From contig CBDEGM010000003.1 in assembly GCA_965237715.1 (NCBI GenBank), positions 519,913 to 583,912 of the forward strand: a DNA stretch of 64,000 nt. The letters run 5' to 3'. Numbering within the stretch: position 1 is the stretch's first letter; the number at the start of each line of letters is the position of its first letter. The position numbers and the translations under genes are program-made. The notes under the pieces were generated by a model that was given only the letters and a program-made list of their open reading frames with translations, was not told the DNA's origin and searched no databases. Below, in pieces: positions 18,206-58,318 of this stretch. This DNA is from Acidobacteriota bacterium (GTDB taxonomy: Bacteria > Acidobacteriota > UBA6911 > RPQK01 > CBDEGM01).

Positions 18206-18285
18206 TTGCTACGACATTTTTAGGTTAGGAATTGGGAATATAAGACCTACTTGACGTACACGGTAACGAGGTGTAGTTTGTTTGG

Positions 18286-18531
18286 GTGCGTTGGCAAAAA
18301 TGGTCCAGATGGATTGGAGCGAAGCCAGTATCAAGGATTGCAATTATTGCGCTGGTGCCAGGGATTGTCGGTGCGATTGGCGGAGGAATCTGGGAGTACA
18401 TCATGACTAGGGGACTATCAGGCTGGGTTCCGCTCTATGCAGGTCTGATTTCTGGGTTGATTTCGGGAATCGGAACCCTATTGTTTTCGTGGTATCTGGC
18501 GACGGCTCACCCTTTGGACCTGAACCACTGA
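18286..18531 (+). CDS. small hypothetical membrane protein (two predicted TM helices), IS passenger
   Basis: GTG-start ORF. RIAIIALVPGIVGAIGGGIW and LYAGLISGLISGIGTLLFSWYL hydrophobic helices. Low-GC cargo region. Confidence 0.3.
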   Translation: MRWQKWSRWIGAKPVSRIAIIALVPGIVGAIGGGIWEYIMTRGLSGWVPLYAGLISGLISGIGTLLFSWYLATAHPLDLNH

Positions 18532-18558
18532 GAATTCTCACCTCGTAAGCCATCTGAG

Positions 18559-18885
18559 TTGGTGGCAGAAATTAACGGCCTTACCGGCATAGCCAGGCAA
18601 TCCGTCATAGACCGACACGCCAACAAATGGTTGCGTGTAGCTGGAACTGTGTACGATGTTTTCGACAAAAACCAGCTAGTAATTTTGTGTTTGGATGGTA
18701 GCGATATTGGACCTAACTACTGGTTAGAATTCGACGCTTCCGACTGGCGAGACTCGCTAAAAACACTTAATGTCGGCGACCAAATCAGGGCGACCGGGAA
18801 AATAAAATCGTTCAACTCTCTGTATATTGTCCTTGCTCAGTGCGAGAAGGAGCAGGGGTTACACAATCTGAGCGCAATACAATGA
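18559..18885 (+). CDS. hypothetical protein, IS passenger
   Basis: 108-aa ORF with protein-like composition, immediately upstream of and overlapping the MTase start. No recognisable motif. Confidence 0.35.
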   Translation: MVAEINGLTGIARQSVIDRHANKWLRVAGTVYDVFDKNQLVILCLDGSDIGPNYWLEFDASDWRDSLKTLNVGDQIRATGKIKSFNSLYIVLAQCEKEQGLHNLSAIQ

Positions 18886-20235
18886 GCACGCCCAACTGGG
18901 CCAACCAGACCATCTGGACCGGGGATAACCTGCCGATCATGCGGGGCATGAACTCGGAGTCGGTAGACCTTATCTACTTAGACCCCCCCCTTCAACAGCA
19001 ATACGAACTACGCTGCTCCCATTGGCAGCAAGGCTGCTGGAGCCGAGTTCAAGGACACCTGGACCCTCACAGACATCAACGTCGAGTGGGTGAACCTGAT
19101 CGAGTCCAAGCACCCCGCTCTCCACCGTGTCCTGTTGGCGGCGATGACTTCCAGCGACAAGTCCTATCTGATCTACATGGCCGCTCGACTTCTCGAAATC
19201 AGGAGGATTCTCAAGCCCAAAGGCTCGATCTACCTGCACTGTGACCCGACCATGAGCCACTACCTCAAACTGCTCATGGACGCGGTTTTCGGTAAACGTA
19301 AATTCAGAAACGAAATCATCTGGAAGCGCAACTCATCACATAACGACTCGAAGGCATTTGGCCGCGTGGTCGACTCGCTCCTATTCTACGGCCCGCCAAT
19401 AAGGACCGATTCCGTCCGTGTCCCGCTAAGCACAGATTACACTGAGAAGTTTTACCGTCACCGGGACCACCGAGGGCTGTATCGACACGACAACATTATT
19501 CGATCCGCATCGATGGGCGAACGGCCTAACCTGACCTATGAGTACAAAGGCTTTACGCCACCCTTTGGGTGGCGAATGACCAAAGACAAGATAACGGCGC
19601 TGGACGCGGAAAACCGAATAGCTTGGTCTGCATCTGGGCGACCCTATCTGAAACGCTATTTGAGTGAGAACAAGGGGCAGGTTCCGTCGGCGATCTGGAC
19701 CGATATTTCGCCAATTTCAGGCCATGCCAAGGAACGAGTCGGCTATCCGACGCAGAAACCTGTCGCGCTACTGGCTCGCATCATCCAAGCAAGCTCCAAC
19801 ACGGGTGATATGGTTCTGGACCCGTTCTGCGGATGCGCCACGGCCTCCATTACGGCTCAGGGTTTACACAGGCAGTGGGTAGGAATCGATATCTCTCCCA
19901 AGGCCGCCGATCTAGTTCAACAGAGAATGCATGACGAACTGGGCCTATTTTCCAAGGTCATCCACCGCACGGATACTCCCAAACGCACGGACCTAGGAAC
20001 GCTCCCTAGGTACAACTCCGATGCCAATCGAAAGGAGATCTACGGCGATCAGGAAGGTCACTGCAACGGATGTCGGATCCACTTCGAGCTACGCAACTTG
20101 GAGGTAGGCCACATCATCTCCAAGGGCAAAGGCGGGACCGATCACATTGGAAACCTGCAACTTCTTTGTGGGAACTGTAATCGGATCAAAGGAGACCGTG
20201 GCATGGAGTACCTGAAAGCGAAGCTACAGATATGA
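18882..20235 (+). pseudogene. beta-class N6-adenine/N4-cytosine DNA methyltransferase fused to C-terminal HNH endonuclease; reading frame broken at a C8 homopolymer (18983..18990)
   Basis: N-terminus MSTPNWANQTIW..SVDLIYLDPP is in frame 0. With C7 instead of C8 it would read DPPFNSNTNY...KDTWT..., motif IV, and continue into the 19090..20235 frame. That frame carries HPTQKP-like GYPTQKPVALLARII, motif I VLDPFCGCATA, and the HNH motif HCNGC...HIISK...GNLQLLCGNCN. Confidence 0.7.
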
Positions 20236-21258
20236 GAAAACGACCTGACTATGGAAACGCAACCCCGGAAGACTTGGTGAGAGCTCTTCTGCGCGTGCAC
20301 CGGAAGACAGCCCGTTATCGGCAATCAGTTCCTGGTACATCAGTTGTTTCCCAGCCAAGCCCCGCACAACCCGTCTCATCTGGTGCAGAGTGTCCAGCTG
20401 GCGAAGGTTGTGCTTCCCAGCGAACTCACGAACATAGCGATCCAGATGTTTAGGACTGATCTTGTGAAAGACTCCCGTATGCGCCCTTTTGAGCATAGAC
20501 CAGAAGCTCTCGACGCCATTGGTATACGCTTTCCCTCGCACATACTCACCAATCGAGTGCTTAACCGTCTCATGATTCGGAAGGGTGTGGTAGGTCAAAG
20601 CGTCATCGGTGTAGATTTTGGTTCCCAGCTTGACGTGCTCCATAATGAAAAGGCTCATGGTCTCAGACTTGGTATTGCGGACAACTTGGGCGGAGACTTG
20701 ATTAGAGGATCGATCTTTGATCCCCGCTACAGCCATTTTGCCAGTCGGTCCACGACCACTCATCTGAGCTCTCTTGGTCTTGTTCATGTTCCTGCGCTTT
20801 CCTCCTATGTAGGTCTCATCGACTTCGACCGGGCCGGAGAAAGACGTTCCACCGTTTTTAGTTCTGGTCCAGGCTTCTCGAATTCTGTGGAGCATGAACC
20901 ATGCAGCGGGTTGACTGACCCCAATGTCGCTCGCCAACTTGGTGGAGGCGATGCTCTTCAAACTGGTCAGTTCCAGATAAATGGCCATAGCCCATTTGTG
21001 GAGCGAGAGGTTTGTTTTGGCAATGGGCGTCCCAGTGCGGACCGAGAAATACCGCTCGCAATCTCGGCACCGATACGGCATGGGCTTTCGGTTGGGCACG
21101 GTGTAGGTATTGGTGGACCCGCAATGCCCACAACACCTTTCCTCTGGCCACAGTGTCTTTTCAAACCACTCCTCAGCTGCTTTTTCGTTGGGGAACATGT
21201 CCATCAAGTGGATAATGTTGAGTTTCCTGCGTTGCCGGTTTCTTGTTTGTTTTCCCAT
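20224..21258 (-). CDS. IS1595-family (ISXO2-like) transposase
   Basis: N-terminal zinc ribbon CCGHCGS...YRCRDCERYFSVRTGT, then the ISXO2-like DDE domain (VEVDETYIGGK...). 344 aa. Confidence 0.85.
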   Translation of the reverse strand: MGKQTRNRQRRKLNIIHLMDMFPNEKAAEEWFEKTLWPEERCCGHCGSTNTYTVPNRKPMPYRCRDCERYFSVRTGTPIAKTNLSLHKWAMAIYLELTSLKSIASTKLASDIGVSQPAAWFMLHRIREAWTRTKNGGTSFSGPVEVDETYIGGKRRNMNKTKRAQMSGRGPTGKMAVAGIKDRSSNQVSAQVVRNTKSETMSLFIMEHVKLGTKIYTDDALTYHTLPNHETVKHSIGEYVRGKAYTNGVESFWSMLKRAHTGVFHKISPKHLDRYVREFAGKHNLRQLDTLHQMRRVVRGLAGKQLMYQELIADNGLSSGARAEELSPSLPGLRFHSQVVFSYL

Positions 21259-21337
21259 AGGAGTATTATATGTCAGGAGAAGGGAAAAGTCAAGTAGGTC
21301 TTATAATCCCCTTAGGAATCTATGCCTTGGTGCTTTG

Positions 21338-31770: not shown

Positions 31771-34700
31771 TCACGCGAGAATTGCCCCTGCAAAGGCCGA
31801 TGGATAGGCCTCATAAAAACCCTCTTGGAGTTGAGAGAGAATTACGACCGCCGCAGTCGAGACTGGAATCAGCGTCAGGTCAAAGCGGAAAACGAAAATG
31901 TAGCACAGCAGAAGGATCATTCCGGTAATGAGTCCTGAAGCGAGCCACCCCAGGGGAGCGTCGACAGATGTACCGCTCACAACGAAACCGAGCACAATCA
32001 GCAGCGTGGAAAAGAGACCCTTTTTTCGGGACCAACCACCCGTGTAGTGATCCACTGCGAGAAAAACGAGCAGGACAAAAGAGGTCATCAACAGATAATT
32101 GAGAAGTGAATCCAAGGCGGAACCCAAGACCGGGAGAACCCCGTCAGCAGCGCCATAGTGGCCCCAGTTTGGAGAGAGAGAAGGCATCTGACCCAATGCG
32201 AGTGTTCTTAACGCTACCGCAATAAAACCCAGGGAAAGACCTGACCAGAATCGGGTCCAATCCTTTTCACTCGCTACTGGAGCCCTCCATTGGTGGAGAA
32301 ACCCTGCCATCAGTCCGATCAATGCGGAAAGAAACAGAAGGCTCAGAAATCCCACAGCAATGGCGGTTAAGATTTGGTTGCTTATAGGCTGATCTGTGAA
32401 AAAGCCCGCCTTCATGGCTGGCCATTCGTTAATACGGCCAAGAAGGTTTACGAGAGAAGAGAGACCCAGAAAAGTGAGGAAGGCAGGTACAGCAAACTGC
32501 CGGCGGCTCCATCTCACCACAGCGCCTACGACACCGGCCAAAAGCAGCAGACCCAAAATCGAGCTGCTCAGAATCCCGATGATCCGGGCGGCGCTGTTTC
32601 TGCTGCGATCCTCACGAAGCCACTCCTCCGGCACATGGATATGGCGATAGGAATCCACTATCTCCTGGCCTGCGATTTCCACAACGATTCTTGCTTCACC
32701 TTCCGGCAGGGGAGAAGTTTCATCTACGAAAGTGAAGGACCAATCCCGACGGGCGGAAAGTTTCGAGGGCTTGGCGGAGATTTCTCTCAGCTGCGATGGT
32801 CCGAGCCGATAATTCGTCTCCACAACTGAAAAGGCCATCTTTCTGGTCTCATCTTCCGACAACGTCTCTCCGGATCTAGCCTCAGGCAGCTGATGGCGGT
32901 ACCTCAGAGTCTCACCATCCTGACCAATGCCCACCACATGTTCCTCAGCTCGTTCTTCTACATCGCCCTCGAAGGTGGCAAAGCAAACCCGCCAGTGTGG
33001 TGGACTCAGAAAATTTCCAATGAGCTTCCCATAAAGCTCTTCACCTCCGGTCTGCCAGATGAATCGGTGCTGTACGCCCACCCTTGCCTGAACAGAGCTC
33101 AGGACTTCCCACGATTCCGGCAGTTCGACCCCTCGATCTGACAAGACCTGGTGGGCCCGGCCTACTGCTTCTTGGCGCGAAACCTTCAGAGCCGGAGCGT
33201 CATTTTGAAAATCCCCGGCCAGCACCCAAATCCCCAATCCCAGAATTCCTCCCACCTGAAGAGAACGCAAAACGCCGGGCCTAAGCCTCACTGCAGCAGT
33301 ATCAGCCGGTTCCTCTAACGGTGCTTCGACAACTTCCAGCTCCTCCTGAAGCGGAGGACTCCAGGAGGTGTTGAGGTGTTCCGGAGAGACCTTGTCCCAT
33401 TGCCTGGCACGCCATCTCCTCCCCAACACCACCCATAAAGGAATCAGCGTTAGAGCAACCACCAGCACCTTATCCAACCAGACTCCCGGCGCCGATGAGA
33501 CAAATAGCGGAAGGGCAAACCAAATCACATCGAATGCGAAGTGCAAAACGATTCCCGGAAGAAGTCCGAAATAAAGGTACAGCAGGCCAAAGAACAATGA
33601 GGGAATAATCAGCTCAACAACTCGGGCGTAGGCAGGTTGGTTGGGATATGCGGCGTGCCCGGCACCGAAAATGAGGGCCTGGATCACGAAGGCAGCGATA
33701 ATCCAAGCCCGGCGGTGGCCAAAGCGCTGCCCGATACAGGCCGCACCCGCAATCGGCACCGCTCGAAAGAGGCACTCTTCCCAGAATCCCGCCTGAAAAG
33801 AAATCGCGATCGAAGAAAACCAGGGCAAATAGGTCGCCAATACATCAGGGCTAAAGAGCGTGTGGGAGGGCGTCCACCAACCCAATACCCTGTTTGAAAA
33901 AAAGTAAAGGATCACCTCGTAAGCAAAAAAGAGCGGCACCAGCAGATAACCCACCACACTCCGCCCCATGACTGCAGGCGTATTCGCAACTCCCCGGGAC
34001 CACGATTTCCACAACTGGATATGATGGGGAAAAGCTCGACGGGACAGACTCTCGGCAGCCATAAAGGACAGGCTCAACAAGATCGACAGGATCACAAACT
34101 GGCCAAATATCGTCACCATCTGCTGAACCATGAAAGTTTTCACTGACAATGCCGTGTCATACATCATCCAGGCAAGCGGCCACTGGTTGATCATGGCAAG
34201 AGCTTGCAGAAGAGCCACGAATACTCCCCAGCAGAGGGCCATTCGCCAGAGGACCCAGCCTTTGCGAAGGAGAAAGAACAATCCGATAATGCACCCCCCC
34301 AGGATATAAAGCAGCGCCATTGCAACGTTGCCGATAACTCCAATGGTCCGATTGGCGGATCGCATTTCTCCATAACGGCGCTGGAAGCCTTCCGGAATCT
34401 TGATGAAGTGCGAAAGCTCAGTGAATTCATCGCCGCTGACGATCAGCCTAAGTCGATAGCGCCCTTCCCCAAGCTTCTGACTGCCATGCTCGTAGACCAG
34501 GCTATGATCGATCCGACCGCCCGTGCGAACCTCCTGAGACTCTTCCACCAGATGATAACTACCCAGGTTGATCTTCCAATCTCTAACGGCCGCTGTTTCG
34601 GCAATGGTTCGAGCGGATTCAGCGGGCAAAGCGGCCCCTGGTTCGTCTTCCGGAATCTTCTCAGTAAACCCATAGGGCTGGCCTGCCGGGGTGAAACGGA

Positions 34701-35161: not shown

Positions 35162-35455
35162 TTCGCTGTTAATGCTCACTGAGAACCGTAGTTTTTTGGA
35201 CACCCGCCGGTAGTTAACTCAACATCATCCGCACCGCAGGTGCGCGTTTCATCATCCGCGCTTGAAAAGCGCGGGGCCATTTTTCCTGAACAGTTGGTGT
35301 AGTGTCTGGGGGCCAAAGGTGGAAAGGACCTCGACCCTTTGACCGAGAATCGAGGTCCGGTTGTGGCAACCCCGTTACAAGTGGAGGACCACCGCAGACT
35401 TCACTGTAGCCTGTCATGATCCTGGGCTGTTGTCCAGTTCCGCCGGGACTGGACT

Positions 35456-35899
35456 ATGGCCGATCCGCTGGTTGTTTTCCGCCTCCGCTCGTGCCGCGCT
35501 GCAGGCTGCGGTGCACTGTTTTGGATCTGTCGCCGTTGCGGCCGAGGCCATCGCTATTGCAGTGTGCGCTGTCGGCAACAAGCGCGCCGCCAGCAGTGCC
35601 GGGAAGCCAATCGGCGGCATCAACAGTCCCCCGGGGGGCGACTGGATCATCGAGACCGTCAGCGCGCGTATCGGCGGCGGCCGGAGCGCGTGACGGATCA
35701 AGGTAGACGCGAGGATCGCATCTTCGTCAGCATGGCTGCCGTAGCCTCCCTCCAGTTCTCCCTGCCGGGAAAGGAGGGGGAGCCTCGAAAGGAGCGCCAT
35801 GTCCCATCCCATGGGGAGCGTCCCCGCCGTTTTCGGGTTCGCTGTGTCGTGTGTGGTCGGTCCGGCCACTGGATCCATCTGTTTCGGGAAGGAGGGTGA
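35456..35899 (+). CDS. Cys/Arg-rich ORF (possible zinc ribbon) ending 4 bp before istA. May be a spurious frame within the IS21 left terminal region
   Basis: CRAAGCGALFWICRRCGRGHRYCSVRC and C-terminal CVVCGRSG cysteine pairs. The Arg/Gln-rich composition is also typical of out-of-frame GC-rich DNA. Confidence 0.2.
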   Translation: MADPLVVFRLRSCRAAGCGALFWICRRCGRGHRYCSVRCRQQARRQQCREANRRHQQSPGGRLDHRDRQRAYRRRPERVTDQGRREDRIFVSMAAVASLQFSLPGKEGEPRKERHVPSHGERPRRFRVRCVVCGRSGHWIHLFREGG

Positions 35900-35902
35900 A
35901 GC

Positions 35903-37341
35903 ATGATCGATCGAGAACTGCTCGCCCGAATCCGCCATCTTTTCCATGCCGAACATTGGAAGATCGGGACCATTGCTGATCACTTGGGGCTTCACTGGGA
36001 GACCGTGCGCCAGGCTCTCCAGACCGATCGCTTCAATCGCCAGAAGATGGAACGGCCCCGTCTGACCGATCCCTACCTTCCCTTTATCCGAGAGACCCTG
36101 GAGCGCTACCCTCGGCTTCGTGTCACGCGTCTGTTCGAGATGCTGCGCGCCCGGGGCTACACGGGCTCGGTCGTGCAGTTGCGGCGCGTGGTGGCCACGC
36201 TGCGCCCCACCCCTCGGGAGGCCTTCGCTGCGTCTGCGGACCTTCCCGGGGGAGGCGGGTCAAGCCGACTGGGCGCACTTCGGTAAAGTCCGGGTGGGCC
36301 GTGCCGAGCGCATCCTGTCCTGCTTTGTGTTCACCCCCTCCTATTCGCGGGCGCTGTTTCTGGAGTTTTGTTTTGACCAGCAAATGGAAAACTTCCTGCG
36401 CGCTCACATCCACGCCTTCGAAGACATCGGTTGTCCACGCACCATCCTGTACGACAACACCAAAAGCGTCGTGTTGGAACGTCGGGGCGAGGCTGTTCAC
36501 TTTCATCCGCGCCGGTTGGAGCTGGCCGCCCATTATCACTTTGCGCCACGCCCCTGCCACCCCTACCGGGCTTCCGAGAAAGGGCGCGTCGAAAGAGCCA
36601 TCTCCTATGTGCGCCATTCCTTCTTCGCCGCCCGCCCCTTTAGCACGCTCTCAGACTTCAACCGTCAAGCGCTCCTCTGGCGCGACCAGGTAGCGCCATC
36701 GTCGGCCCTGGCCCGGCGGCGATGGGCGCACCGTCGAGGAAGTGTGGGAAGAAGAAAAAGCCTTCCTTCTTCCCTTGCCGGCTCATCGCCTGGAAACCGA
36801 TCTGGTTCTGCCGGTCCGCTCCCGCAAAACCATCTACATCCGTTTTGATTTAAACGACTATTCGATCCCGCCTTCGGCCGTGGGCCGGCCCCTGACACTG
36901 GTGGCCTCCGAGCAGACGGTGCGCATTTTGGACGGAAGCACCGAGATCGCCCGCCATCTCCGCTCCTATGACCGCCACGACGTCCGCACCGATCCGGCTC
37001 ACCAGGAAGCGCTGCTGGCCGCCGTTCCGGAAACGGAAACCTTGCTGGACGAGGCCTTTCAGCGCGGAGAGCCCACCGGCCGCCAGACGGCCAAGCTGGT
37101 GGAACTCTTGGATCTCTATGGGGCCGAAGAGCTGCAGGCGGCGGTGCGTGAAGCCCTGCAACGGGGCACCCCGCGCGCCGCCTCGGTGGCCTTTCTGCTG
37201 GGCCGGCGCCAGCGCGCTCAGGGGCGAAAGGCGCCTCTACCCATTGAGTTGCGCCAGCGTCCCGAACTGGAGGACCTCTATGTCCAATCCCATAACCCGG
37301 AGACCTATGACGAACTGGCTTCCGATGACGACGAATCCTGA
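35903..37341 (+). pseudogene. istA: IS21-family transposase IstA, two frameshifts (near 36240 and near 36695)
   Basis: HTH N-terminus in frame 2 (35903..36286). Integrase core ...[15 protein letters not shown]...[10 protein letters not shown]... in frame 0 (36120..36848). C-terminus [19 protein letters not shown]... in frame 1 (36742..37341). Confidence 0.75.
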
Positions 37342-38089
37342 TCTGATGCAGCTTTTGCACAAGACCGGTCTGGTGACGCTCGCCGGTGAGCTGGAGGATT
37401 TTCTGGCCCGCGCCACCAAGGGGCGCTGGTCCCCCCGTCAGATCTTGGAGGAACTGGCTCGTCGGGAGCATGAGGAGCGAGCCCAACGCAGTCTCAAGCG
37501 GCGTCTGCGCCTGGCCAAGATCGGCCGCTTCAAGCCGATGGATGACTTTGACTGGAACTGGCCGACCCGGATCGACCGGGAAGTCATTGAGCGCGCCTTT
37601 ACCCTGGACTTTATCCAGGAAGGCCGCAACCTCATCTTACTGGGTACCAACGGCCTGGGAAAAACCATGATCATCAAGAATCTGGCTTACCAGTCCGTCC
37701 TGGCCGGCTACTCTGTGCTCTTTCGAACCGCCCCGGAGATTCTCGACGACCTGCAATCGGAGGCGCCGGAACTGCAGCGCCGCAAGCTGAAAAAATACGC
37801 GCGCGCGCAGGTGCTCTACCTCGATGAAGTCGGCTGTCTCACCTACGACAGTGAGGCCGCCGACCTGCTCCATGAAATCGTCAACCGGCGCTATGAGTGC
37901 CGGTCGCTCGTGCTGACCTCCAACAAAGCCTTTAAGGAGTGGAATAGCGTCTTTCCCCAATCCGGCTGCTTGATTGCGCTTCTGGACCGTCTCACCCACC
38001 ATGCTGACGTCACTGTGATGGAGGGGCAAAGCTACCGCGTGCGGGAAAGCGAGCAGGAAGCGGCCGCCCGTCGCAAGAAAACAAGATGA
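37328..38089 (+). CDS. istB: IS21-family helper ATPase IstB
   Basis: Walker [13 protein letters not shown] and Walker [12 protein letters not shown] overlaps the istA stop as ATGACGACGAATCCTGA. Confidence 0.85.
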
Positions 38090-38493
38090 GCACTCCCGTC
38101 CAGCGTCGCGCTCATATCCAGACCCTCTTGGCGGATTATCTCGAACTTCCCCATACGCCCACTCGAGCACGCCCGCCGGATCGGCGACTCGCCGCTCACT
38201 TCTATGACCGCGCTATCCCTCTGGCCACCGTCCAGGATGCCTTCCTGGTGGCGACCAGCCGCCGTCTTTTCCGAGACCCAGCGCTTCCTCGACTTTCTCC
38301 CATTCGCTCCCTTTACTACTTCCTCCCCATTGTCGAAGAGTTGCTTCAGTATCCGCTCCCCCACGGTTACGCTCAGTATCTCGAACGCAAACCACGCGCC
38401 CATCACAAGCCCAAGGAGGGGCACCCCATGGAAAAACCCGTTGATCGAGGTTCGCCACCCGGCGTGTGTTCAGAAAAGTTCAGATCCTCGTGA
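38086..38493 (+). CDS. hypothetical protein, translationally coupled to istB (ATGA overlap)
   Basis: 135-aa ORF whose ATG overlaps the istB TGA. No recognisable domain. Confidence 0.35.
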   Translation: MSTPVQRRAHIQTLLADYLELPHTPTRARPPDRRLAAHFYDRAIPLATVQDAFLVATSRRLFRDPALPRLSPIRSLYYFLPIVEELLQYPLPHGYAQYLERKPRAHHKPKEGHPMEKPVDRGSPPGVCSEKFRSS

Positions 38494-38534
38494 TCGCTAA
38501 CACCTTCGCTACCACACCTTATGCATGATCCGGG

Positions 38535-56102: not shown

Positions 56103-56290
56103 GGGTGGCAGCCGTCTTATGAGCTGGAAGAAATGGTAGATGATTTTCTTCGAGAGCTGCGCGAGAATCCCCAGAGATATGAGTCACCTCAAAAGCCCCA
56201 AGTCGCCACATAGCAGCGAGTGACGGAAGCGCGCTTCCAAGATGGTCCTTGCTTGAAAAGGGATTTCCTATGTGCCAGGGTATCGGAGGA

Positions 56291-58318
56291 ATGGCAAAGA
56301 TGGCAAAACCCAGGCTCAGCAAGAAGGCACTACTGGACTTGTACCGTGTGATGCAGCTGATTCGCCAGTGCGAGGAGCAGCTGGCCCGAGCCCATCAACG
56401 CGGTCTGGTTCTTGGAGCGTGTCATACCTATGTAGGTGAAGAAGCGATCGCTTCCGGCGTCTGTGCCCATCTGCGCAGCAACGATGCCGTGTTCAGCACC
56501 CATCGCGGACACGGCCACGCCCTGGCGAAGGGACTTTCTCCTCGTGAACTGATTGCGGAGTTGTTTGGTCGCGAGACGGGCTGCTCGCAGGGTCGCGGCG
56601 GCAGCATGCATCTCTTCGCTCCCGAGGTGGGTTTGATGGGAACCAGCGGCGTTGTGGGGCCCTCTATCCTGCAGGCGGCTGGAGCAGGCTACAGTTTTAA
56701 GTTGCTCAAAACCGATCAGGTTGCGGTCGCCTTCTTCGGCGACGGTGCCGTGAACAACGGGGCCTTCCATGAGGGCTTGAACATGGCGAGCATCTGGAAA
56801 CTACCGGTGCTCTTTGTTTGCGAGAACAATCAATTCGCTACGGAGGTGCCGTTCTCCTATGCCAGCGCCAATCCCCGCATCGGGGACCGGGGCAAGATGT
56901 ACCAATTGCCGGGCTTTGAAGTGGACGGCAATGATGTTCTTGCCGTGCACAAGATCGCTGCACAGGCTGTGCGCCGGGCCCGCAAAGGAGAGGGCGCGAC
57001 CTTGATCGAATGTAAGACCTACCGCACCCGCGCCCATGCGGAAGGGCACCCGGATTACACCTATCGCAGTCGGGAAGACGTGCAGGAATGGAGGACTCGC
57101 TGCCCGATCCTGCGCCTGAAGCAACTGCTGCTGCAGGGGAGCGCGGAGGAGTCGGAGCTGGCAAAGATTGAAGAGCAAGTTCGCGAGGTGGTTCGCGAGG
57201 CTCAAGCATTTGCTCAGAAGAGCTCCTGGCCGGATCCGGCCACGGCAACGACTCACGTTTTCTACGAGGGACCCGCCGCTTCCTCAGGCAGCGGGAAGAA
57301 TCCCGTGGTGAACCAGCCAGCCCATCAGGATCCGAAGAAGACGCGGGAAATCACTTTCATGCAAGCCACGCTGGAAGCGCTTTCCGAGGAAATGGCAAAG
57401 AATCCCAAAATCTTTGTCATGGGAGAGGGTGTGGGCAAACGGGGCGGCAATTTTGCCACCACCACGGGTCTGTATGATCTCTACGGTCCGGAACGCCTCT
57501 GCGATACGCCGATTTGCGAACGCGGTTTCGTGGGGTTGGGGGGGGGAGCTGCCATGACCGGCACCCGGCCGGTGATCGATTTCATCTTTGCGGACTTCAT
57601 GCTGGACACCGTGGGCGAGCTGATCAACCAGATCGCCAAGATGCAGTATATGAGCAGCGGCAGGCTCAAGATGCCGGTTCTTCTCCGTGGCTGTATCGGC
57701 ATTGGCCATTCGGCATCGACCCACCACTCGGGAAACTACTATCCCATGTACTCGCATTTCCCGGGATTCCGCGTGGTCGTCCCTGCAACTCCCTATGACG
57801 CCAAGGGTCTGTTCAAACGAGCACTGAACTGCAATGACCCGGTGCTGTTTTTGGAACACCGGGAATTGCTTGCCTTGAAAGGACACGTACCCAAACAAGA
57901 ATACGAAATCGAATTCGGCAAGGCTTGCGTCGTGCGTGCAGGGAACGACGTCACGGTGGTGGCGATTGCCCGAATGCTGCATGAGTCCCTGGAGGCCTGC
58001 AGGGCGTTGGAGGAAGAAGGGATTTCAGTGGAATTGATCGATCCGCGTACTGTTGCGCCGCTGGATGTGGAAACCATCCGACAGTCGGTGCACAAGACCG
58101 GCCGTCTGCTCATCGTGGACGAAACCTTTGCAAGCTGCGGCATCGGAGCGGAGATCGCGGCCCGAATCGCGGATGAGGGCTTCGATGACTTGGATGCGCC
58201 GATTCGTCGGGTCAACGGCGCATTCGCCCCGACTCCCTACAGTCCCACATTGGAAAAGGCGATCCTTCCCCAAAAAGAGCAGATCGTGGAAGCCATCCGC
58301 AATTTGGCAGCTGAGTAA
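56291..58318 (+). CDS. fused E1 alpha-beta subunit of a TPP-dependent 2-oxoacid (pyruvate/acetoin) dehydrogenase complex
   Basis: The N-terminal half is E1-alpha-like with the TPP motif GDGAVNNGAFHEGLNMA. The C-terminal half is E1-beta-like (transketolase pyrimidine-binding and C-terminal domains). Confidence 0.8.
   Translation: MAKMAKPRLSKKALLDLYRVMQLIRQCEEQLARAHQRGLVLGACHTYVGEEAIASGVCAHLRSNDAVFSTHRGHGHALAKGLSPRELIAELFGRETGCSQGRGGSMHLFAPEVGLMGTSGVVGPSILQAAGAGYSFKLLKTDQVAVAFFGDGAVNNGAFHEGLNMASIWKLPVLFVCENNQFATEVPFSYASANPRIGDRGKMYQLPGFEVDGNDVLAVHKIAAQAVRRARKGEGATLIECKTYRTRAHAEGHPDYTYRSREDVQEWRTRCPILRLKQLLLQGSAEESELAKIEEQVREVVREAQAFAQKSSWPDPATATTHVFYEGPAASSGSGKNPVVNQPAHQDPKKTREITFMQATLEALSEEMAKNPKIFVMGEGVGKRGGNFATTTGLYDLYGPERLCDTPICERGFVGLGGGAAMTGTRPVIDFIFADFMLDTVGELINQIAKMQYMSSGRLKMPVLLRGCIGIGHSASTHHSGNYYPMYSHFPGFRVVVPATPYDAKGLFKRALNCNDPVLFLEHRELLALKGHVPKQEYEIEFGKACVVRAGNDVTVVAIARMLHESLEACRALEEEGISVELIDPRTVAPLDVETIRQSVHKTGRLLIVDETFASCGIGAEIAARIADEGFDDLDAPIRRVNGAFAPTPYSPTLEKAILPQKEQIVEAIRNLAAE

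Follow-up and report, generated by a model that had tools for sequence, protein, structure and literature searches.

A 64,000-nucleotide stretch of DNA from an Acidobacteriota bacterium (GenBank assembly GCA_965237715.1, contig CBDEGM010000003.1, positions 519,913 to 583,912 of the forward strand), called the window below, carries a gene for a DNA methyltransferase fused to an HNH domain (18882-20235, + strand). The gene is cargo of an IS1595-family insertion sequence (IS) that is present in many copies, and in the window its reading frame is broken by a run of eight cytosines (C8) on the codons of the catalytic motif IV. The explanation favoured here, with a probability of roughly 0.7, is that C8 is a real, inherited +1 frameshift which inactivates one copy of the IS-borne methyltransferase-HNH gene, and that the tract is a mutational hot spot under relaxed selection and not a switch. 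This reading builds on direct observations of the tract, the reading frames, the anatomy of the element, the census of its copies and the linkage of tract length to flanking single-nucleotide polymorphisms (SNPs).

The poly-C run occupies window positions 18983-18990 (+ strand) and lies within GAC CCC CCC (C) TTC (18981-18993), the motif IV codons (D-P-P-F) with the extra C inside them. A sequence-only reading of the window had already placed a C8 run on these codons, and had claimed that a C7 version would form one 450-aa open reading frame (ORF) with an intact motif IV; both claims hold. In the C8 allele, the frame from the ATG at 18882 reads MSTPNW...LIYLDPP, is lost after DPP, continues as LQQQ... 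and ends at a TGA (19242-19244), which leaves a truncated product of 120 aa (18882-19244, + strand). Deletion of one C restores a single 450-aa ORF (18882-20235) that reads DPPFNSNTNYAAPIGSKAAGAEFKDTWT. C7 is the in-frame and ancestral state. C10 is likewise in frame and gives 451 aa with DPPPF, and C6, C9 and C11 are out of frame. For out-of-frame copies, gene callers annotate a downstream ORF of 381 aa with a GTG start (19090-20235, + strand; equal to P0121), a product that is putative only.

A C8 run is not in itself unusual in this DNA. The window contains three C8/G8 matches, compared with 5.6 +/- 2.9 in dinucleotide-preserving shuffles, and enrichment of such runs was rejected as a candidate explanation. 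What gives the tract its significance is its position, together with the series of lengths that it shows in other copies, and not its mere existence. Among the window homopolymers of seven or more bases, it is the only one that coincides with a frame break; each of the other runs (T7, T7, A7, four C7 and G9) falls within an unbroken ORF, the ORFs being 113 to 1108 codons long. The four C7 runs, at 34294, 38808, 47810 and 61602, serve as controls and are in frame within long ORFs. The G9 run (57538-57546) is the longest homopolymer of the window and encodes, in frame, a Gly-rich stretch of an intact 711-codon fused E1 dehydrogenase (56183-58318; E1_dh, Transket_pyr and Transketolase_C domains).

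The stretch 18234-21307 (3074 bp), which includes the gene, recurs in the same assembly at 99.3-99.9% identity, with unrelated flanks. At least 14 copies of the element were found on four contigs of one sample (ERZ26167216), whose contig names carry about 11-12x. The tract is present in 13 of the 14, the remaining copy being without the 5' part. Five copies have C7 (L001, L086, L091, L096 and L097) and five have C8 (the window, L081, L085, L090 and L095); single copies have C9 (L094), C10 (L084, whose 451-aa DPPPF product is P0134) and C11 (L082). The full 450-aa protein is encoded in the DNA of at least four copies (L001, L086, L091 and L096), and a fifth is implied by P0125, a further 450-aa product that points to one more C7 copy and is known as protein only. 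Besides the tract, only two 1-bp indels occur across all copies together: the tract accounts for four of the five indel columns of the alignment, against 30 substitution sites. The specificity region is essentially identical among the copies. Two matches to the tract plus its left flank (ATCTACTTAGACCCCCCC) in JGI metagenomes were both dissimilar to the element and were set aside as chance.

Tract length is tied to the SNP background on which it occurs, and the two variable sites closest to the tract, 18888 and 19056, separate the alleles cleanly. Position 18888 marks the sub-lineage that holds all C8 copies: it is A in the window (+ strand; Thr3), and G at this position gives Ala3. The haplotype 18888A with 19056C is found in all five C8 copies and in one C7 copy (L096). 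The remaining four C7 copies have 18888G with 19056C, and the three copies with 18888G and 19056T are those that have C9, C10 and C11. The association of C8 with 18888A, a SNP 95 bp upstream of the tract, thus extends to five of five copies (exact P = 0.0047), and the copies with C9 or longer are exactly the three 19056T copies (exact P = 0.0035). The five C8 copies differ at nine substitution sites and show no tract change; the four aligned C7 copies (L097 was left out) differ at eight sites, again with no tract change. Only the longer alleles (C9, C10 and C11) differ among close relatives, which fits an instability that rises with length. Since the tract alleles follow SNP haplotypes, C8 is heritable and has spread by transposition or gene conversion.

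The same pattern bears on the second claim of the sequence-only reading, that the extra C might be a homopolymer miscall. On that account, the true sequence would be C7, the gene would be intact, and the error would have arisen in a long-read assembly of low coverage. The errors that remain in long-read consensus sequences mainly concern homopolymer length, the contig name (ctg495421_12.29x_l) carries '12.29x', taken here as modest coverage, and a few other 1-bp indels separate copies of this and of other insertion sequences in the same assembly. However, the same C8 appears at five distinct loci, all of them of the 18888A haplotype, and consensus errors made at random would show no such tie. 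C10 and C11 are impossible as +/-1 errors of C7. The same assembler gave C7 for five copies, which argues against a systematic over-call, and the in-frame G9, C7, A7 and T7 runs described above show no long window homopolymer other than the tract breaking a frame. A miscall is therefore rejected as a very unlikely source of C8.

In other genomes, the same codons are written differently. At 79 homologous loci, the D-P-P codons are interrupted (GAC CCG CCG, GAT CCG CCG and similar) and give at most C6, so that GAC CCC CCC is confined, relative to these loci, to the present element lineage. All 79 are in frame through DPPF or DPPY. Copies that depart from C7 make up eight of 13 here, seven of them out of frame, compared with none of the 79 homologous loci (Fisher P = 1.4e-8). 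The nearest homologue, in a Terriglobia metagenome-assembled genome (MAG), has 87-91% protein identity. The synonymous codon choice of this lineage has thus placed a slippage-prone run on the catalytic motif.

A simple repeat that sets the frame of a methyltransferase gene recalls phase variation, and the sequence-only reading had proposed a phase-variation switch. As an active process, this would mean that the tract switches fast and reversibly, turning each copy ON (C7 or C10) or OFF (C8, C9 or C11) and varying the dose of methylation or nuclease between cells. The repeat has the form known from phasevarions, in that a simple repeat within the ORF determines the frame, with C7 and C10 in and C8, C9 and C11 out. 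Its length ranges from 7 to 11 among copies that are otherwise 99.3-99.9% identical, most of the indel columns among copies fall in it, and no two of the three longest alleles are alike, which is what an instability that grows with length would predict. Switching through homopolymer tracts is also established for methyltransferase genes (PMC3936762; PMC4209511). The linkage described above speaks against fast switching: the alleles track SNP haplotypes and stay constant over eight or nine substitutions within the C7 and C8 groups, whereas tract changes at a contingency locus should greatly outpace the substitutions gained over 3 kb. C7 and C8 are short for high-rate switching, and the window has no excess of C8 runs. 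Moreover, with at least four near-identical full-length copies in the DNA and a fifth known from its protein, switching of one copy would not be expected to alter the methylome; by the same token, loss of the window copy should leave methylation unchanged. The proposal therefore stands in part. The tract does vary, from C7 to C11 among paralogous copies, but this variation is seen between paralogues only, and a fast, reversible switch is unlikely in view of the SNP linkage, the stability and the redundancy.

A related idea takes the copies together. The poly-C tract might act as a copy-by-copy rheostat of a selfish methyltransferase-HNH module, slippage setting how many of the ~14 copies are ON in a given cell; this is an unlikely proposition. 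If true, it would produce cell-to-cell differences in methylation dose, perhaps with effects on the defence against foreign DNA or on how the element itself transposes. Dam methylation is known to affect the transposition of IS10 and IS50. It would also be a distributed, multi-locus form of phase variation, which is not known to have been described for phasevarions.

The C8 copy might also not be fully off. Leaky recoding, by +1 ribosomal slippage (tRNA-Pro on CCC-C) or by transcriptional slippage on the C/G run, would restore the frame in part of the products and let tract length tune expression. CCC-C sites are prone to +1 shifts and long homopolymers are sites of transcriptional slippage; a +1 shift at CCC CCC C|UU puts the C8 allele back precisely into the frame that reads DPPF. 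Against this, such slippage normally amounts to about 1% or less with intact tRNA modification and EF-P, and the C9 and C11 alleles would require a different shift. A stimulatory element was neither sought nor seen. This alternative is very unlikely.

The C7-repaired protein matches PF01555 (N6_N4_Mtase) with 135.7 bits (cut-off 26.7) and, in its C-terminal part, PF01844 (HNH) with 42.7 bits. It has the beta-class layout, with motif IV (DPPF, residues 34-37) N-terminal to motif I (DPFCGCATA, residues 313-321). In the window, motif I (VLDPFCGCATA) is encoded at 19813-19845 and the HNH domain at ~20059-20181. The relatives of the repaired protein with solved structures in the PDB are of the beta class (CcrM, M.RsrI, M.MboIIA, DpnA and type III Mod). 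With C7, the gene thus encodes a protein with the features of a beta-class N6-adenine/N4-cytosine methyltransferase; the window allele as written does not encode such a protein. The repaired 450-aa protein differs from P0001, which another copy encodes, by a single residue (Thr3/Ala3).

The HNH half departs from its family. Both CxxC pairs and the His are retained, but the acidic residue that precedes the His is replaced by Gly. This residue belongs to the 'DH' dyad of HNH proteins, and in every copy of the element the dyad is read as part of EVGHII (window 20101-20118), with Gly in the acidic position. The same position was compared in 64 homologous loci and is D in 63 and E in one. The acid-His dyad is incomplete, and the protein consequently lacks the full signature of an HNH nuclease. 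To judge from these residues, the domain is a family member that is probably catalytically impaired in this lineage. If the nuclease is already impaired, the methylase could be lost with no risk of self-restriction, which would fit relaxed selection on the gene.

The mobile unit as a whole spans ~3.07 kb (18233-21311), the core common to all copies being 18234-21307. It is bounded by imperfect terminal inverted repeats of ~23 bp, GGGGAATATAAGACCTACTTGAC and GGGGATTATAAGACCTACTTGAC. The left repeat, (T)GGGAATATAAGACCTACTTGAC, lies at 18233-18255 (+ strand) and occurs with the variants (T/G)GGGAATATAAGACCTACTTGAC; the right repeat lies at 21286-21311 (- strand), with the reverse complement GGGGATTATAAGACCTACTTGAC. 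An 8-bp target-site duplication, TTAGGAAT, flanks the unit at 18225-18232 and 21312-21319. Duplications of 8 bp were found at six copies: TTAGGAAT in the window, AAAGAAAA at L001, TAGAGATA at L086, GAAAATAT at L090, TAGATGTT at L096 and TTATGAAA at L094. At three copies none was found, which is consistent with recombination between copies. The transposase gene (20224-21258, - strand) is intact and encodes an IS1595-family DDE transposase of 344 aa with an N-terminal zinc ribbon, which matches NCBIfam NF033547 with 163.9 bits (cut-off 75), PF12762 with 126 bits and PF12760 with 27 bits. A protein identical to it is present on 10 contigs. The gene is convergent with the methyltransferase gene, and the two overlap by 12 bp. 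Just upstream of the transposase start (21258), at the right end of the element, lies a promoter-like site, TTGACT-17-TATAAT (21265-21293, - strand), recognised only by its 11 of 12 matches to the consensus.

Two small ORFs precede the methyltransferase gene inside the element. The first, orfA (18286-18531, + strand), encodes a hydrophobic protein of 81 aa. The second, orfB (18559-18885, + strand), encodes 108 aa and shares an ATGA with the methyltransferase gene, in which its own stop overlaps the start of the latter; from this arrangement, orfB is probably cargo co-transcribed with the methyltransferase. Neither orfA nor orfB has a Pfam or NCBIfam match, and tblastn found no homologue of either in 79 related loci. 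The copies sit at unrelated sites with different neighbours, and the methyltransferase-HNH gene, orfA and orfB lie between the repeats. By every feature tested, the element is an IS1595-family transporter IS.

The pairing of transposase and methyltransferase-HNH gene is not peculiar to this genome. Of the 79 homologous loci, 32 have an IS1595-type transposase beside the methyltransferase-HNH gene, and in three other MAGs (L008-L010; L015/L016; L035/L036/L040) the two genes make up discrete units of 2.6-3.7 kb that are present in several copies with 99.9% identity. The genomes with the pair come from several phyla, and many are named as sponge symbionts. From its distribution, the combination looks like a widespread family of transporter IS. 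A literature search, with ISfinder outside its scope, found no description of an IS1595 element with a methyltransferase-HNH passenger, or of the fusion itself.

Copies with a broken methyltransferase have also spread. At least two C8 copies, in the window and at L090, lie in target duplications of their own, which shows that an element with a broken methyltransferase still spreads, whether it transposes itself or converts copies already in place. The idea that the methyltransferase is needed in cis for transposition was rejected on these grounds. The L090 copy (ctg495427, 677-685 kb) splits an inositol-1-phosphate synthase gene into pieces of 314 aa and 89 aa, with the duplication GAAAATAT at its ends, and so knocks this gene out. 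Insertion sequences are very numerous in the genome. Three of the methyltransferase-element copies (L081, L084 and L097) are themselves interrupted by IS256-type elements, and window positions 35167-38503 hold an IS21-type element (a Mu-transposase C-terminal domain protein plus IstB) that is 99-99.8% identical to a copy in L001.

The history proposed for the window copy runs as follows. Motif IV is encoded as GAC CCC CCC TTC in this lineage, and the resulting C7 run would be prone to replication slippage. Replication slippage is an established mechanism for homopolymer runs of this kind. Slippage to C8 probably took place once, in the 18888A sub-lineage, and the broken element would then have reached at least five loci through transposition or gene conversion. 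In the 19056T sub-lineage, the tract would have grown to at least C9 and then given rise to the C9, C10 and C11 alleles. Only the 120-aa fragment would come from the window copy, without the aromatic residue of motif IV, the target-recognition region, motif I for AdoMet binding and the HNH domain. Whatever methylation takes place would presumably be supplied in trans by the intact C7 copies, given their redundancy. The frameshift is thus probably tolerated as the product of a mutational hot spot under relaxed selection, at a low switching rate.

Several points weigh against this account of stable inheritance. The SNPs at 18888, 20042 and 21268 violate the four-gamete test, so gene conversion between copies is evident, and conversion could itself hold the tract and its SNPs together and blur the count of independent events. 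A consensus sequence is blind to minority tract lengths, and the low switching rate is drawn only from the pattern among paralogues. Lastly, assemblers that compress homopolymers could in principle restore run lengths wrongly in near-identical repeats.

Exchange between copies has left other traces. The C9 copy, L094, alone carries eleven substitutions within 47 bp, equivalent to window positions 19105-19151. This patch matches more diverged paralogues (the EAKHPALYRVLLAAMTDSDK type) and, from that match, is probably a patch of gene conversion. L094 shares its left flank with L095 and its right flank with L084, which suggests either that copies of the element have undergone homologous recombination with one another or that they inserted into some other repeat.

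The system can be set beside several that are known. Phase-variable methyltransferases occur in Helicobacter, Neisseria and Haemophilus. Described cases include the type III mod genes and the homopolymer-containing type II methyltransferases of Helicobacter pylori (PMC3936762; PMC4209511). As in phasevarions, the methyltransferase ORF contains a simple repeat in which the addition or removal of a single unit changes the frame and eliminates the enzyme, and several lengths occur. Unlike in phasevarions, the gene is here the cargo of an IS with at least 14 near-identical copies, the tract alleles are inherited stably with their flanking SNPs, and the only ON length, C7 (the in-frame C10 aside), lies on the codons of the catalytic motif IV themselves. 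The enzyme also differs from type III Mod in being a predicted beta-class methyltransferase fused to HNH.

Transporter insertion sequences (tIS), and the IS1595 family among them, were reportedly treated by Siguier, Gagnevin and Chandler in 2009. PMC11891212 cites the transporter IS concept of Siguier et al.; it names a transcription regulator as the passenger in the case of IS1595 (ISNha5), and assigns a methyltransferase passenger to the IS1380 family. The present element resembles IS1595-family tIS in its zinc-ribbon DDE transposase, its short inverted repeats, its 8-bp duplication and the position of its passengers inside the repeats. It differs from the IS1595 example of PMC11891212 in its cargo, a methyltransferase-HNH fusion plus two small ORFs. 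Transposon-like mobile restriction-modification units with inverted repeats and an 8-bp target duplication were described by Furuta, Abe and Kobayashi (2010; PMC2853133). What the two cases share is a compact mobile unit of modification, and possibly restriction, genes that lies between inverted repeats and is flanked by 8-bp duplications. The element described here, in contrast, has its own transposase and many copies, joins the methylase and nuclease domains in one polypeptide, and has a nuclease without the acidic residue that is conserved in the DH dyad. In its many copies, some of them truncated or interrupted, and in its frameshifted cargo, the element also resembles the pseudogene decay of multi-copy IS in host-associated bacteria. 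It differs in that its decay is concentrated at one 7-bp hot spot and not scattered at random.

If C8 is an inherited frameshift, the annotation of the window gene should read 'pseudogene copy of an IS-borne methyltransferase'; it should neither be corrected to C7 nor be labelled a phase-variable regulator. The lineage amounts to a natural experiment, in which the synonymous use of GAC CCC CCC instead of GAC CCR CCG made a catalytic motif a mutational hot spot. More broadly, the methyltransferase-HNH family of IS1595-type elements may matter for the spread of methylation genes in communities of the sponge-symbiont type.

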